From IMG/VR virus record IMGVR_UViG_3300031867_000002, positions 160,633-224,632 of that record: DNA of 64,000 nt, one strand, 5' to 3'. The position numbers were made by a program, and so were the translations under genes. This document shows, one piece after another, positions 1,209 through 48,044 of the stretch (the stretch's first letter is position 1; every line of letters starts with the position of its first letter). Source of the DNA: a virus (lineage: Duplodnaviria > Caudoviricetes). A model generated the notes under the pieces. The model was not told the origin of the DNA and did no database searches. It worked only from the letters and a program-made list of their open reading frames with translations.

Positions 1209-3512
1209 TTATTCTTCACCTGTATCTTCATTATTTTCTGCAGCCATACGCTGTTTAGCTTTATGAGCAATTTCTTCCAACTCAGGAATATTAAGATAAG
1301 AACCAAGATTAAATTTGTTAATCTCACGAATAACTTCATTCTTAATTGGCTCTTCTTCATCTGGGTCAAGAATTAATTGTGCTACAGATTGAGAGTATTC
1401 ATTTACGTTAGTCATCATCTGGTTTGTATTAGTAATATTTAAGAACATTGGTGGAGGTAATACTACATTTAATGTAATATTATCATCAAACTCATTGTTA
1501 TAAATATTATTTACAATACGTGTTATATTCTTCTGAAATTTACTTTGACGATTATATACTTTACGTAAGAACTTAGATGACGACATAGTTAGCTGGGATG
1601 CATAGTCTACAGAGTTACGCATTTGAATCATTTCCATAGGAACTTCGGTTGCATTTACTGCAGCTTCTTCTAACATTGTCATCAGTTCAGTCTGATATTC
1701 TACAGATTGTCCTTGCATTACTTCAAAATCAATTGGAGTGCCACCAGGACCTCTAGGAATAATATAATCATTAAACATACCAGTTATATTAAGAATATGG
1801 TTGATATTCTCTATTTGACGAATACCAAAGTTACCTTTCTTAATCTGGTTAATGGTATTCAATAATGTCTTAGATATATTAGTGTCTACATTCTGATTTA
1901 CATAGTATACTCTTTTATCTTGAGCACGTGTCATATTCCAGATAGTATGTGTGATATACATACTAGAGAATAATGTAGCTGGGAAAAGAGACTTATCTAA
2001 ATCTGAGATACCTCTATGTGTATCTTTATTCATATTAAAATATACATGTTCCATATCTTCTGGTGGAATAAATGTAACTCTAATCTTATTCATCTTAGAA
2101 CTGTTATTATCCTGATTATATTTTAGAATAGTATAAATCTCTTGTCTTAAATCTTGGTTAGTATTAATAAACTTAGCATCAATGAAGTTAGATATTTGAT
2201 TAGATAGATAACGGATAATATTATTTTGTTTTTGACTTTGGTCCATCATACTATTTGTAGATAGAATAGAATTAGAACCTTTGAGAGACATTGTAGGGTC
2301 TTGCATTTTATCATAATCACCTACTGGATTATACGGACCCTCTACTTCAATATAATAATACCCAAAACAGTATTCATCAATATAGATTGGAATAACATGT
2401 TTTCTTTCTAATACTCTAATAATAGTACCAGGTACATTAATATATTTATCATCTTTACCTTTCTTCTTTTTAGCTTTATTTTTATCAACAAGACCTTCCT
2501 GACCTCTATCATCAAAACCTTCAAATGATAAATCATCTTTAATTATTCTATCAAATTGTCCCTTTACAACATCACGTACATTCTCAGCTGTTTCTAAAAT
2601 CGTTGCTTCTGAGAAATTTGCACCTTCATAATTCAATGACATCTCGTTCAATGATTTAACTGCTTTTTCAAAACGCATAGTATTTTCTACAATTGAATTT
2701 ATTGCTCCAGTACAACATTCTAATTGTATATTTCCCATACCAGCAGCTTCAAAATCTTTTTGTGTCAATCCTTCTGGAAATGCGTCCATTCCAATATTAC
2801 CAGATTCAGTCATGATTACTTGTTCTCTCATATTTAAATCTGCTCTAATATTATTCTTATTTCTTAATAACCTTACTACAGCTTTCTTATATGGTACATT
2901 ATATACAAATGCTTCTCCATACTTAGATGCTTTATCATAAATCTCATCTACTAAATCTTGAATTTTATAAGTTTCTTTTATATACTTAATATGCTCATTA
3001 TAAGTTTCTGTATCATTATTAATATTAGAAGATGTAATATTGATAAAATCTTTAGAGAAATGGTCTGCTGATAATACATTATCTTTTCTAGTATCTATCG
3101 CTTCTTGCAACTTAGGCATATACTTAAGGATTGTATCAATTTTATTATCATAGTCAAATACTGTAGTAGTATTATTAATAAATCCCATTAAACCAGATTC
3201 AATAACTTGATTATCATTAATGAGTTCTTCAAGTTTCTTAGCTTGTTCATCTCCAGAACCGCCTAACATTGGAGCAGCCTGTATTCTAGAATATAGAGTA
3301 GACATAGTACCGTTACCAGTATTATTCATATTATTAGTAACGATATTATCTATAGATGTATCTAGTTTAGTTTTAATATTTTCTATATCTTGTTTATTGC
3401 TAGGTTGAGAATAGTATGTCTTTTGATATAAATAGTTTAAGTTATTCTGCACTGTATCAGTAAGCTTTTTAATAAGTCCATTAGATGAACGCTGTTTCTT
3501 ATCTTTAGCCAA
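1209..3512 (-). CDS. Portal protein
   Basis: RAQDKRVYYV and DYIIPRG..G..IDFEVMQG resemble T4 gp20-type portal motifs (RAPERRVFY, EDYWLPRR). TTG start with AAAAGGAGG RBS and an upstream AACA-N6-TAA promoter. Confidence 0.75.
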   Translation of the reverse strand: MAKDKKQRSSNGLIKKLTDTVQNNLNYLYQKTYYSQPSNKQDIENIKTKLDTSIDNIVTNNMNNTGNGTMSTLYSRIQAAPMLGGSGDEQAKKLEELINDNQVIESGLMGFINNTTTVFDYDNKIDTILKYMPKLQEAIDTRKDNVLSADHFSKDFINITSSNINNDTETYNEHIKYIKETYKIQDLVDEIYDKASKYGEAFVYNVPYKKAVVRLLRNKNNIRADLNMREQVIMTESGNIGMDAFPEGLTQKDFEAAGMGNIQLECCTGAINSIVENTMRFEKAVKSLNEMSLNYEGANFSEATILETAENVRDVVKGQFDRIIKDDLSFEGFDDRGQEGLVDKNKAKKKKGKDDKYINVPGTIIRVLERKHVIPIYIDEYCFGYYYIEVEGPYNPVGDYDKMQDPTMSLKGSNSILSTNSMMDQSQKQNNIIRYLSNQISNFIDAKFINTNQDLRQEIYTILKYNQDNNSSKMNKIRVTFIPPEDMEHVYFNMNKDTHRGISDLDKSLFPATLFSSMYITHTIWNMTRAQDKRVYYVNQNVDTNISKTLLNTINQIKKGNFGIRQIENINHILNITGMFNDYIIPRGPGGTPIDFEVMQGQSVEYQTELMTMLEEAAVNATEVPMEMIQMRNSVDYASQLTMSSSKFLRKVYNRQSKFQKNITRIVNNIYNNEFDDNITLNVVLPPPMFLNITNTNQMMTNVNEYSQSVAQLILDPDEEEPIKNEVIREINKFNLGSYLNIPELEEIAHKAKQRMAAENNEDTGEE

Positions 3513-43724: not shown

Positions 43725-43774
43725 ATATCTAGAACATACGAATAATATTAACCTTTATGAAAGGAGGAAATTTT

Positions 43775-46207
43775 ATGGCAGTAACACTTTATGGGGTTAA
43801 TACATCTCATGATAAAAGTCACAATAATCTATTAGCCAAATCATTAATAAATGGTCAAATAGGAAATGCATTTTTTATATTTAAAAGCGATTTAAAAGTA
43901 TATAAAGAATCGTCACGAAAAACAGAAATGTATAAAATAAAGAATCATACATTTGCTAAAATAACATCAATAAAAAGCACTACATCAGATGGCGTTATAT
44001 TAGGACTTGCAGCTGGTTCAAAAACAGTATATATAAAATATGCAAGTTATAAACTAAATACTTCTGGAATAAATGCTGGAGCATATTTTACTTCAACATC
44101 TTCAAATCAAATAGGTTGGCAGAACACAAAAGTAGCTCCTCCACAAATAATGACTAGAGGAGATTATTTTAACGGAATTAAAGGTATTAATACATATATT
44201 AATCTAAATTCTGGCGGTTCGTTAGATGAATCTAGAATATTAGAAAAATATGGAAGTGCTGAAGATGAAGAAAATTTAGAAGATACACAAGAAGCTATAG
44301 CTAATGACGCAATAGCTGGTACAACAGCTGCGGCAAACGGAACTACTGGAACTGCTGATGGAGATATACAAGTTACTTATGAATTTGCAGTAAAACCAGC
44401 ACCAACATTCTTCTATAATATTGGAGAACATTTAGCTAGATATAAACAACTTGCTTATGATGAAGAAGGAAATGTAAAAGTAGATGAAGAAGGAAACGTA
44501 ATATATACAACAGATGAAAATGGTAATGCTCTTATGGGTGGTCCTAAAGACTCATTAACAAGTTATCAACATGAAGTAAGTGTTAATGGTGTAAACTATA
44601 AAGCTCTTAGAAATATATTTGGTGCACCATATCAATTCTTACCATCAACAGATTGTAGAATTAGTAATGGCAAGTTTATAGATAATTTAGAGCTTGCTGG
44701 ATATGAATTTAATGAAAAGATTCTTTCTAGAATGCCATTACTATTTATAACTCCTGGTAATACATCTTTTATGGGAGGTTCATCTGAAAATGCTAGAACA
44801 GCTTTAATTGGGTCATTAGATGAAACATATGTAGATAAATCTGTATCTGAAAACTCTTTAAAAGCTATGCTAGAAGATTATAATGGTAAACTTTATACTA
44901 TTATGCCTGCATATGGAGAATATTTTAATTATGTTAACCCAATGTGTAGAGCAGGTGCAATATTCTTGGGTCTTGCTGGAAATACTGAATCAGATAAGAA
45001 TAAAACACTCTATGGTAAGACATTAGATGTATTTCATTGGGGTGTATATGAAGGACAAGATTATACTCCTTATATAGAAGAAGATGAAACTATACTCGGA
45101 GATGAAACTGCAGAAGAAATTGAAGGAGAGGTTGAAACTCCTGAAGAAGATGCTAATGGCGTAGCAAATACTGAGAATGCTACAACAGAAGGAGAAGAAG
45201 CAAATCCTAATCCTGAAGAAGATAATGAAATTGAAGAGGAAGAAAAGTATGACTGGGAGCAAGATGATGTATTTGAGAAAGCTGATAATAGTTTCTTAAA
45301 AGATTTTCAACAGGCTATGTATTATGGTAATGCAATTCCATTCTATATTAATTCAGAATCATCATTCCAAGACTCATTCTCTAATGAAACTACGGAATCG
45401 ACATTATCATCTACAATTAATGCGTTATCTGATAGAGCTAGAGAAGTACAATTCTTATTAGGTACTGCGTCTAATGCGGTAGGTGAAGCATTTGATAAAG
45501 TAGATGGTACATTAACAGAAATTAAAGAACAAATTGATAGTATTGTTAGTAAAGTCGCTGGAGGTAATTCTATCTTTACTACTATTGCTAATTCAGTTAA
45601 GACTATTGTATCTGGTGGACGTTTATTATTTCCTCAAATATGGTCTAATAGCAGTTTTACTAAGTCATATAATATATCTATTAAATTAACTACACCAAGT
45701 TATGATAAGTTCTCTTGGTGGTTAAATATCTATGTTCCTTTGTGTCATCTTATGGCATTAGTATTGCCTAGGTCTGAATATATAAACTCTTATACTACTC
45801 CATTCCTAATTAAAGCATTCTATAGAGGAATGTTTAATATAGATATGGGTATTATTACAGAAATGTCATTTAATAGAGGTAAAGAAGGTTCATGGACTAA
45901 AGATGGATTACCTACTGTAGTAGATGTATCATTCTCTATACAAGATTTATATACTGGTATGGGCATGACCAGTATAGGTTCAATGTTTAAAGGTACTACA
46001 TTACAAAATGTATCTGAAATGGACTATATTGCTAACTTATGCGGTATTAATATTAATGAACCAGATGTATTTAGAATGGTTACATTATGGGCTACATTTA
46101 ATCTTAAAGATAGAGTAGGGGATTTCTTGCCTAATCTAAGCATGAATATCGGTACTACACTTAGAAATAAAGGTATGAGTATTTATAATTCTTTATGGGG
46201 ATTATAA
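43775..46207 (+). CDS. Putative baseplate/tail-tip structural protein
   Basis: Follows the tape-measure gene; ATG 43775 with AAGGAGG RBS; promoter at 43733-43745. Beta-rich C-terminus (GIITEMSF...PTVVDVSFSIQDL) is reminiscent of tube-like baseplate proteins. Confidence 0.5.
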   Translation: MAVTLYGVNTSHDKSHNNLLAKSLINGQIGNAFFIFKSDLKVYKESSRKTEMYKIKNHTFAKITSIKSTTSDGVILGLAAGSKTVYIKYASYKLNTSGINAGAYFTSTSSNQIGWQNTKVAPPQIMTRGDYFNGIKGINTYINLNSGGSLDESRILEKYGSAEDEENLEDTQEAIANDAIAGTTAAANGTTGTADGDIQVTYEFAVKPAPTFFYNIGEHLARYKQLAYDEEGNVKVDEEGNVIYTTDENGNALMGGPKDSLTSYQHEVSVNGVNYKALRNIFGAPYQFLPSTDCRISNGKFIDNLELAGYEFNEKILSRMPLLFITPGNTSFMGGSSENARTALIGSLDETYVDKSVSENSLKAMLEDYNGKLYTIMPAYGEYFNYVNPMCRAGAIFLGLAGNTESDKNKTLYGKTLDVFHWGVYEGQDYTPYIEEDETILGDETAEEIEGEVETPEEDANGVANTENATTEGEEANPNPEEDNEIEEEEKYDWEQDDVFEKADNSFLKDFQQAMYYGNAIPFYINSESSFQDSFSNETTESTLSSTINALSDRAREVQFLLGTASNAVGEAFDKVDGTLTEIKEQIDSIVSKVAGGNSIFTTIANSVKTIVSGGRLLFPQIWSNSSFTKSYNISIKLTTPSYDKFSWWLNIYVPLCHLMALVLPRSEYINSYTTPFLIKAFYRGMFNIDMGIITEMSFNRGKEGSWTKDGLPTVVDVSFSIQDLYTGMGMTSIGSMFKGTTLQNVSEMDYIANLCGININEPDVFRMVTLWATFNLKDRVGDFLPNLSMNIGTTLRNKGMSIYNSLWGL

Positions 46208-46216
46208 CTATATAGT

Positions 46217-46346
46217 AAAGCTATTAGTGGTGCAAATAGCTTTACAGTAATTATCCTCTCGTTTTGAGACGACATTATTCGATTCCTTTGGATAAAGATT
46301 AACAATGGAACGGTGATACGACATATGTCGTATCACTTGTTCTGTC
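46217..46346 (+). ncRNA. Candidate late sRNA-3 (two anti-SD modules)
   Basis: AACT atatag TAA promoter (46206-46218), 5' hairpin AAAGCTATT/AATAGCTTT, CAT-TATTCGA-TTCCTTT module, perfect 24-nt palindromic hairpin at 46313-46336. The next gene has its own promoter. Confidence 0.55.
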
Positions 46347-46399
46347 TTAAACTACCTAATCTCGAACAATTAGGTAAATATGTTAATGGAGGTGATACC

Positions 46400-47101
46400 A
46401 TGGCTAGTATGAAACAAAAGCTAAAAGACTATCAAGCTAAATATGGTAATATACCATTAGATTATAAAGAAAGATTAGATTATATGTGTACTATATATAA
46501 TATCTCTTATGATGAGATGATAGATATATTACACGAAAGAGATAGACGTTTAAATAACTTATATTACACCACTATAAGAGTAGTATTAAATGTAATTCCA
46601 GAAGGTGCTAAAAGACCTAGATATAGATTTGTTAATAGAGGTAATCTTATTAATGCTGCTATATCAGACCCAGGATTTATTCATGTATATTCTCCTGGTG
46701 CTGCACAAAATCACGAATATATGAAACGACTTGTAGATGATGAGATAGTACAACTTACCCATCTTATATGTACTCCATGTGATGTACATTTTAGAGCTTA
46801 CTTTCCAACACCAAAATCTTATAATAAACAAGAAACATTTATGGCGGAATTAGGACTCAATCGTCCTATAGTAAAACCAGACTGGGATAATATTGGAAAG
46901 CTATATTCTGATATGTATAATAGTAATATATGGGTTGATGATGCGTTGACAATAAGAGGTGTAGTAGATAAATTCTATTCTATATTACCTAGAGTAGAGA
47001 TTGATTTATCTTATCTAAATGCGGTATACTGTAAACAACAGTATCAGAATATAATTGGTCGTAAAGACTATGAAGAAAACATGAATCTTAGATATATTTG
47101 A
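46400..47101 (+). CDS. RusA-like Holliday junction resolvase
   Basis: KPDWDNIGK...D...WVDD catalytic signature; ATG 46400 with GGAGGTG RBS; promoter at 46365-46377. Confidence 0.8.
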   Translation: MASMKQKLKDYQAKYGNIPLDYKERLDYMCTIYNISYDEMIDILHERDRRLNNLYYTTIRVVLNVIPEGAKRPRYRFVNRGNLINAAISDPGFIHVYSPGAAQNHEYMKRLVDDEIVQLTHLICTPCDVHFRAYFPTPKSYNKQETFMAELGLNRPIVKPDWDNIGKLYSDMYNSNIWVDDALTIRGVVDKFYSILPRVEIDLSYLNAVYCKQQYQNIIGRKDYEENMNLRYI

Positions 47102-47510: not shown

Positions 47511-47652
47511 AAAGCAGGCTACCTCGTGGGTAGCCTGTAAAACTTTTGTTTAATAAATATATATTATTATAGTGAATAGTAGAGGTCAGACAATGCTAAT
47601 CTGAACTGCACGAGGATATGCAGAATACTATATATTATTGGAGGTCATTTCA

Positions 47653-48006: not shown

Positions 48007-48044
48007 TAATAAGGGCGCAGTCAGAGTGCGCCCTTATTTTTCGT

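Follow-up and report, generated by a model that had tools for sequence, protein, structure and literature searches.

A putative late RNA unit with its own promoter and terminator, upstream of the RusA-like gene of an uncultured AR9-like jumbo phage

Host-encoded small RNAs (sRNAs) of the RoxS/RsaE type in Bacillota mask Shine-Dalgarno (SD) sites with conserved C/U-rich seeds and have validated targets, and the enterobacterial sRNAs of the DapZ/MicL type, which lie in 3' untranslated regions (3' UTRs), are Hfq-dependent, carry conserved seeds and are transcribed from a promoter of their own close to where the upstream open reading frame (ORF) ends. In the phages phiKZ and 201phi2-1, short RNAs arise by termination just past promoters; some were confirmed by northern analysis and some are positionally conserved (PMC10914365, PMC11512511). 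For phage AR9 (KU878088), the late promoter consensus AACA-N6-T-A/G, the last base of which is the transcription start, was mapped by differential RNA sequencing (dRNA-seq) and primer extension, and strong ending of transcription was found at predicted terminators (PMC5312081). One AR9 late start, 75478 (-), has no ORF, is entered in Table S3 as 'antisense' to g090 with 3757 reads (a count among the highest in the rows of that table examined), and was not presented as an sRNA by the authors (PMC5312081). In the AR9 sequence, the RNA from this start (75400-75478, -) begins with AAUGUCCUCCUG, carries UCCUCCU at nt 5-11 and, about 70 nt further on, runs into a 15-bp hairpin that has a U-rich tail. 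Here, we analyzed a locus of similar layout in a 64,000-nt stretch of DNA (hereafter, the window; positions 160,633 to 224,632 of the IMG/VR virus record IMGVR_UViG_3300031867_000002, Caudoviricetes). The locus lies at window positions 46206-46348, between a virion structural protein gene and a RusA-like resolvase gene; coordinates are those of the window unless marked as genome.

The interval 46206-46348 (+) probably yields a small non-coding RNA, as judged from its promoter, fold and terminator. An earlier reading made from the letters of the window without database searches (hereafter, the sequence-only reading) had proposed here an orphan late promoter that drives a structured RNA directed against ribosome-binding sites (RBSs); its observation was confirmed, and its interpretation was partly supported. 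The features of the unit, together with the promoter that follows it, are listed below.

46206..46218 (+): late promoter P1, AACTATATAGTAA (AACT-ATATAG-TAA), with the predicted start A46217; from the motif class, the weight matrix and the AR9 rule
46217..46243 (+): 5'-terminal hairpin from +1 with a 9-bp stem, AAAGCUAUU/AAUAGCUUU; from folds
46254..46260 (+): C/U-rich patch UCCUCUC, mostly paired in a weak local hairpin (unpaired probability, 0.27)
46273..46289 (+): antisense RBS of 17 nt, CAUUAUUCGAUUCCUUU, the mirror image of SD-spacer-AUG
46305..46348 (+): intrinsic terminator (stem, 46312-46337; extended stem from 46305; tail, UUGUUCUGUCUU); from the terminator scan and folds
46365..46377 (+): late promoter P2 for RusA, AACAATTAGGTAA, with the predicted start A46376; weight-matrix score, 17.6

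The motif AAC[AT]-N6-TAA, to which P1 belongs, has 166 copies in the genome, and 78 of them are intergenic where 11 would be expected (7-fold; intergenic DNA makes up 6.8% of the genome). With a single exception (77/78), the intergenic copies are oriented to the next gene, mostly 10-35 nt ahead of its start. The enrichment was restricted to the N6 spacing and the TAA ending; N5, N7 and other endings were unenriched. AAC[AT]-N6-TAA is a genuine promoter class of this phage and matches the AR9 late consensus. P1 itself has the AAC(A/T), the spacing of exactly 6 nt and the T-A(+1) of an AR9-type late promoter, and its first two A's also close the stop codon TAA of the upstream gene (46205-46207), an overlap that had already been pointed out. 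The weight matrix was trained on 59 ordinary late promoters (training scores, 7.6-25.9), and the score of P1 (13.0) fell inside the range of the ordinary promoters. Scores equal to or above that of P1 were scarce within coding DNA (about four to six among those listed), and the chance of such a score was estimated at about 0.003 per 190-nt gap. When AACTATATAGTAA was searched across the window with up to three mismatches, it was not enriched; the signal emerges only when the N6 is left free. P1 looks like a functional promoter. Because the last base is the start under the AR9 rule, the start was predicted at A46217, in agreement with the start near 46217 that the sequence-only reading had expected. 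An early-type class, TATATTAT-N6-G (consensus, approximately WTATATTATWA..GTG), was also found, with 25 of 34 copies intergenic (e.g., 47560-47580 (+) and the 26654 region); it agrees with AAATATATATTAT-N6-G, the consensus for early (virion polymerase) promoters in AR9.

The predicted RNA runs from 46217 to about 46345 (both ends are predictions), upstream of RusA and with less than 250 nt from start to terminator. The fold of 46217-46348 had a free energy of -39.7 kcal/mol (z = -4.4). The hairpin, the two modules CAG-TAATTA-TCCTCTC (46245-46260) and CAT-TATTCGA-TTCCTTT (46273-46289), and the palindrome were all found where the sequence-only reading had placed them. At the DNA level, the arms of the 5' hairpin are AAAGCTATT (46217-46225) and AATAGCTTT (46235-46243). 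Both modules had been taken as directed against RBSs. In the second, a weak hairpin (46275-46295, -3.9 kcal/mol) holds UUCCU (46283-46287) in its loop with an unpaired probability of about 1.0, an exposed pyrimidine-rich seed as in anti-SD sRNAs, but the first has its UCCUCUC mostly paired and mirrors a CTG start. An antisense SD plus ATG without a real ORF opposite occurs at about 0.36 per kb, which gives a chance of about 2% in the 63-nt linker. By eye, the small + strand ORFs of the unit were all of 12 codons or fewer, and no SD preceded any of them. The Rfam search gave no match in the window at the gathering score, and for 46100-46500 only sub-threshold matches (E >0.4).

The terminator was recovered by the terminator scan as a perfect 24-nt palindrome (46313-46336) followed by TTGTTCTGTCTT, with a stem of 11-12 bp and a tail with T at 5 of 8 positions. 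P2, at 46365, is beyond this terminator and ends 10 nt upstream of the RusA SD, so that the separate RusA promoter described earlier was borne out. The + strand is expected to be transcribed, as had been argued for the C/U-rich strand, because no promoter-like - strand site faces the unit and because two terminators (48008-48038 and 47537-47515) intervene before the nearest - strand genes. A start of the RusA frame at GTG 46313, which would lengthen it by 29 codons, was considered and rejected, as the extension is not preserved in relatives. The palindrome center GACATATGTC is common to three intergenic terminator-like palindromes with differing outer stems (1176-1199, 46313-46336 and genome 135924-135945), and of the eight counts of ACATATGTC in the genome (strands merged), six are intergenic.

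The same order of elements, namely a late promoter, a short RNA (75-135 nt), a strong terminator, a second late promoter and a gene, was also found at window 6470 (-) and 23602 (-) and at genome 36998 (-), 38598 (-) and 67121 (+). The first promoter lies a few to about 14 nt from the preceding stop codon in at least two of these units (genome 67121 and window 23602). The hairpin at +1 and the CAU-N6-8-UUCCUYU layout recur at window 6470 (-) and 23602 (-), CAU-N6-7-UUCCUYU being common to three units; the units at genome 36998 and 67121 are without an anti-SD 5-mer. Regarding the anti-RBS family that had been proposed, layout and motif recur, but the 17-nt antisense RBS is not conserved. The hairpin named sRNA-1 (about 6458, -) does contain AAAGCTAT and ATAGC, as had been reported, but the likeness is a coincidence of just 8 nt, and the hairpin arms concerned are opposite ones. 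CAT-N5-8-TTCCTY has 50 matches in the genome, about 31 of which are the reverse of real gene starts, and four to five of the other 19 are located in orphan late units (estimated at about 0.2% of the sequence). Sense strands are otherwise poor in anti-SD 5-mers, which are present in 8% of 50-nt windows. By these counts, the CAU-N-UUCCUY motif is strongly concentrated in the predicted orphan late units. Apart from these units, tRNA-like sequences (recognized by eye) directly follow late promoters at genome 15863-15990 (+) and 16527-16620 (+), and the latter is succeeded by a trailer of about 110 nt and a terminator.

Relatives were collected by RusA-based searches, which yielded a large family of viral contigs of 150-340 kb. 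The nearest clade consists of L015, L016, L017, L018 and L040 (RusA, 68-73% identical). The 13-mer of P1 is exact in L015, L016, L017 and L040 and has one change in L018, at 156-307 nt before RusA, and the intergenic DNA around the conserved P1 is only 46-58% identical. In the nearest clade, another AACA-N6-TAA is found 27-30 nt ahead of RusA; across all eight close relatives, its distance to the RusA start is 27-39 nt. In the window, L015, L018, L040, both modules of L016, and L013/L014, a hairpin at +1/+2 is followed by a mostly unpaired linker with C/U patches and by a terminator (z, -4.1 to -5.9). The stem sequences of the +1/+2 hairpin vary among lineages, and every relative has a hairpin and a U-rich tail of unrelated sequence at the terminator position. 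An alignment of ten orthologous modules with MAFFT was too diverged for a covariance model or for pair counts, and the conservation of structure therefore rests on single-sequence folds. L016 (2693-2960) and L017 (2692-2958) have two full promoter-hairpin-linker-terminator units in tandem ahead of the RusA promoter; the first tandem unit of these two has a 19-nt sequence, GTCGGTATTTGTGTCTCCT, in common with L040. Just upstream of the RusA promoter (window 46350-46364), AAA(A/C)TACCnAATCTnG is conserved in L013-L018 and L040, unlike the adjacent RNA unit; a role as an upstream promoter element or as a binding site is conceivable.

In the more distant L019-L031, the gap before RusA is about 60-120 nt and contains a single promoter, the 3' part of which overlaps or abuts a hairpin, often then a U-tract, directly before the RusA SD. 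Since these relatives have one promoter with an overlapping hairpin directly before RusA, P1 and its hairpin appear to be an inherited arrangement. P1 is probably the ancestral RusA promoter, orphaned when the nearest clade gained a linker, a terminator and a second promoter before RusA. In the distant relatives the overlap may be a combined terminator and promoter. In six of them (L019, L020, L023, L025, L030 and L031; at about 2930-3000), transcripts reading in would form a long terminator-like stem, and those started at the promoter only the short 5' hairpin.

We favor, although with less than even confidence, the explanation that a late RNA of about 130 nt starts at a promoter of its own, ends at the terminator and acts by pairing with RBSs. 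The non-virion RNA polymerase of the phage would start at A46217 from P1 and would stop at the intrinsic terminator (46312-46337 and the U-rich tail), so that the non-coding product would measure about 125-130 nt; these bases are also the 3' end of the upstream virion-protein mRNA, and RusA would be expressed from its own late promoter (46365), past the terminator. The hairpin at +1 probably shields the 5' end of the RNA. The UUCCU loop would pair with the SD regions of phage messages and block initiation late in infection, and the best candidate target is a gene for 563 aa at genome 106289 (-), which a probable early promoter precedes. We regard as rather unlikely, but worth stating, the broader proposal that a fast-evolving family of late sRNAs mirrors RBSs in AR9-like gut jumbo phages and that, here, the RNA shuts off translation of the 563-aa gene once late transcription begins, as an RNA-based early-to-late switch of a virulent phage.

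Targets were predicted genome-wide, as the sequence-only reading had suggested, by scoring contiguous helices of the RNA against both genome strands. The start region of the 563-aa gene was among the top three helix matches, with 17 contiguous pairs that begin at the G preceding the SD and take in the AUG, and its co-fold gain (ddG, the free-energy difference; kcal/mol) was -16.8, as compared with -12.0 and -13.7 for the two genes that the sequence-only reading had named (18825, - and 26744, +) and -6.6 for RusA. In those two genes, AGGAATCG does occur in the start regions, but the pairing there covers only 9-10 bp. The promoter ahead of the 563-aa gene is near the early consensus, with A instead of G at +1, and the protein has no Pfam or PHROG family. 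Partial complementarity to the 563-aa-gene start region was also seen by eye in module 2 of L016. RNAduplex energies over 438 start regions did not discriminate, since shuffled seeds attained equal minima.

Several results weigh against this explanation. The 17-pair helix is borderline: among 178 controls, each the reverse complement of a real start region, 10 equaled its score against another start region, and in the closest relative the orthologous 563-aa-gene start region is not complementary to the linker of that phage. The U-tract of the terminator is broken by G and C. When metagenome contigs were scanned with a 20-mer of the RNA for transcript-like contigs, all seven matches were unrelated DNA (36-57% G+C). 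The seed is not conserved; the C/U patches of relatives differ (CACCC, CUCCU and CACCUUUC), and L018 is without any of seven 5-mers. The 17-nt antisense RBS is not conserved either; in the alignment of relatives, it falls largely within a window-specific insertion. Compared with L013/L014, the closest relatives, the unit is 48-50% identical and the flanking genes 88-90% identical at the DNA level. L013 and L014 have AACATATAATTGA at the position of P1, a TGA form that is unenriched in the genome of the window (4 found; 5.5 expected), and their promoter is probably dead; the hairpin, the C-rich patch and the terminator are nevertheless retained, although the terminator stems differ between the two. 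The structure is thus kept despite a probably dead promoter, as a 3' UTR would predict.

The main alternative, which has a real if minority chance, is that the stretch serves the virion-protein mRNA alone, as its 3' UTR and terminator. P1 would then be a relic of the RusA promoter, which may fire but whose short product would be jobless, the C/U patches would be incidental, and the hairpin and terminator would be retained for formation and stability of the mRNA 3' end. The mRNA of the virion-protein gene must include the stretch, because no terminator was found between the stop codon (46207) and 46312. The unit also evolves as structure-only DNA would (about 50% identity, as against about 90% in the flanks), the whole architecture is intact in L013/L014 with an unenriched promoter variant, the single-promoter layout of L019-L031 makes P1 and the hairpin inherited, and the target match lies at the edge of chance. 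However, the exact 13-mer of P1 persists in four lineages amid diverging surroundings, and a pure 3' UTR does not need a hairpin that starts, as it does in all lineages, at +1/+2 of P1. The 6470 (-) unit, of like design, cannot be a 3' UTR, because it is set between diverging genes without an upstream gene reading in, and CAU-N-UUCCUY is concentrated in such units. Compared by eye with the start region of the upstream gene itself, the patches of the 3' UTR gave 5-nt matches only.

We consider it improbable that the stretch is a cis-acting leader or insulator for RusA, in which the C/U patch of read-through RNA masks the RusA SD by pairing with it, translation is left to P2 transcripts and the terminator is an attenuator. 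In the fold of 46217-46420, GUAAUUAUCCUC does pair with the RusA SD region GGAGGUGAUAC. By eye, the patch CAUCACC of L014 complements GGUGAUG of its RusA SD, and CACCU in module 2 of L016 stands opposite AGGUG; one position is altered on both sides (UAUC/GAUA in the window and CAUC/GAUG in L014). Terminators in phiKZ 5' UTRs halt more than 90% of some transcripts (PMC10914365). The pairing is, however, non-specific, as any anti-SD patch pairs with any SD; the co-fold gain of RusA was the weakest among the start regions compared, and the covariation amounts to a single position. The arrangement also requires read-through of the terminator and leaves the 17-nt antisense RBS and P1 without a role.

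It is hardly credible that AAAGGAA-N7-ATG on the - strand (46289-46273) is the real RBS of a 30-aa peptide (46275..46183), since, in spite of a good SD at the standard distance and of 30 open codons that include a hydrophobic stretch, no - strand promoter-like site faces it, the two terminators would block incoming - strand transcription, the frame crosses P1 and extends into the last part of the upstream gene, L013/L014 lack the segment, and the equivalent frame of L015 encodes an unrelated 16 aa (by eye).

The 224,632-bp virus record has direct terminal repeats and a G+C content of 31.7%, and the window is its final 64 kb. Split RNA polymerase beta and beta' homologues are encoded (Rpb2_6 matches in two frames and Rpb1_2 matches in one). 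By its gene content and promoters, the source is an uncultured AR9-like jumbo phage with AR9-like transcription. No match to cultured phages was obtained with blastn, protein matches were below 34% identity, and the phage has no close cultured relative. The genes on either side of the unit are as follows.

43775..46207 (+): upstream late gene for an 810-aa phiKZ-type virion structural protein; PHROG virion structural protein match, and tblastn to phiKZ-like jumbo phages
46388-46395 (+): SD of RusA, GGAGGTGA
46388..47101, including the SD (+): RusA-like resolvase gene, 233 aa, ATG 46400; Pfam RusA (3.3e-14) and PHROG 140

The virion-protein gene has a late promoter at 43733 and an SD ahead of ATG 43775, and the ENA copy of this gene is likewise called as 810 aa. 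The exact RusA protein was found on encoding contigs at two places. The SD/start region of RusA (26 nt; window 46384-46409) is 96% identical to genome 1942-1967 (-), which lies near the start of an unrelated gene at the opposite end of the genome.

Short RNAs bounded by a promoter and a terminator have already been seen in phiKZ-type phages and in the start-site tables of AR9, and none of them has a known function. If blocking of RBSs by units such as this one were true, giant phages with their own polymerases would also time translation by RNA, and the short RNAs would gain a testable role. The P1 unit illustrates how such units may originate, by severing of an old gene promoter by an inserted terminator and a new promoter; it combines a very fast turnover of sequence with a stable layout and supplies one concrete candidate target. 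We regard it as a plausible short late RNA and as a modest, unverified member of this class, with an anti-RBS function that is unproven.

Of the described systems, the AR9 start at 75478 (-) resembles the P1 unit in promoter type (AACATATTAAT-A+1), in the lack of an ORF, in its place between two genes, and in having an anti-SD stretch and a terminator hairpin. The two have no sequence similarity, the anti-SD stretch of AR9 is at the extreme 5' end and not after a 5' hairpin, and the AR9 unit is antisense to its neighbors whereas the P1 unit is the tail of the upstream mRNA. phiKZ and 201phi2-1 are, like this phage, jumbo phages with their own multisubunit RNA polymerases, in which, upstream of a gene, a terminator lies no more than 250 nt beyond a start. 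There, one promoter serves both the short RNA and the downstream gene, whereas a second promoter follows the terminator here; their RNAs have been observed, without a reported anti-SD feature, whereas the RNA here is predicted. With the RoxS/RsaE type, the P1 unit shares the small size, an exposed pyrimidine-rich motif, an intrinsic terminator and the proposed pairing with SDs. The RoxS/RsaE seeds are conserved and their targets validated, whereas the seed of the P1 unit is not conserved and its target is only a candidate. As in the DapZ/MicL type, the promoter of the P1 unit is at the end of the upstream gene and the terminator is shared by the small RNA and the mRNA, but the P1 unit belongs to a phage and would be driven by the phage polymerase.

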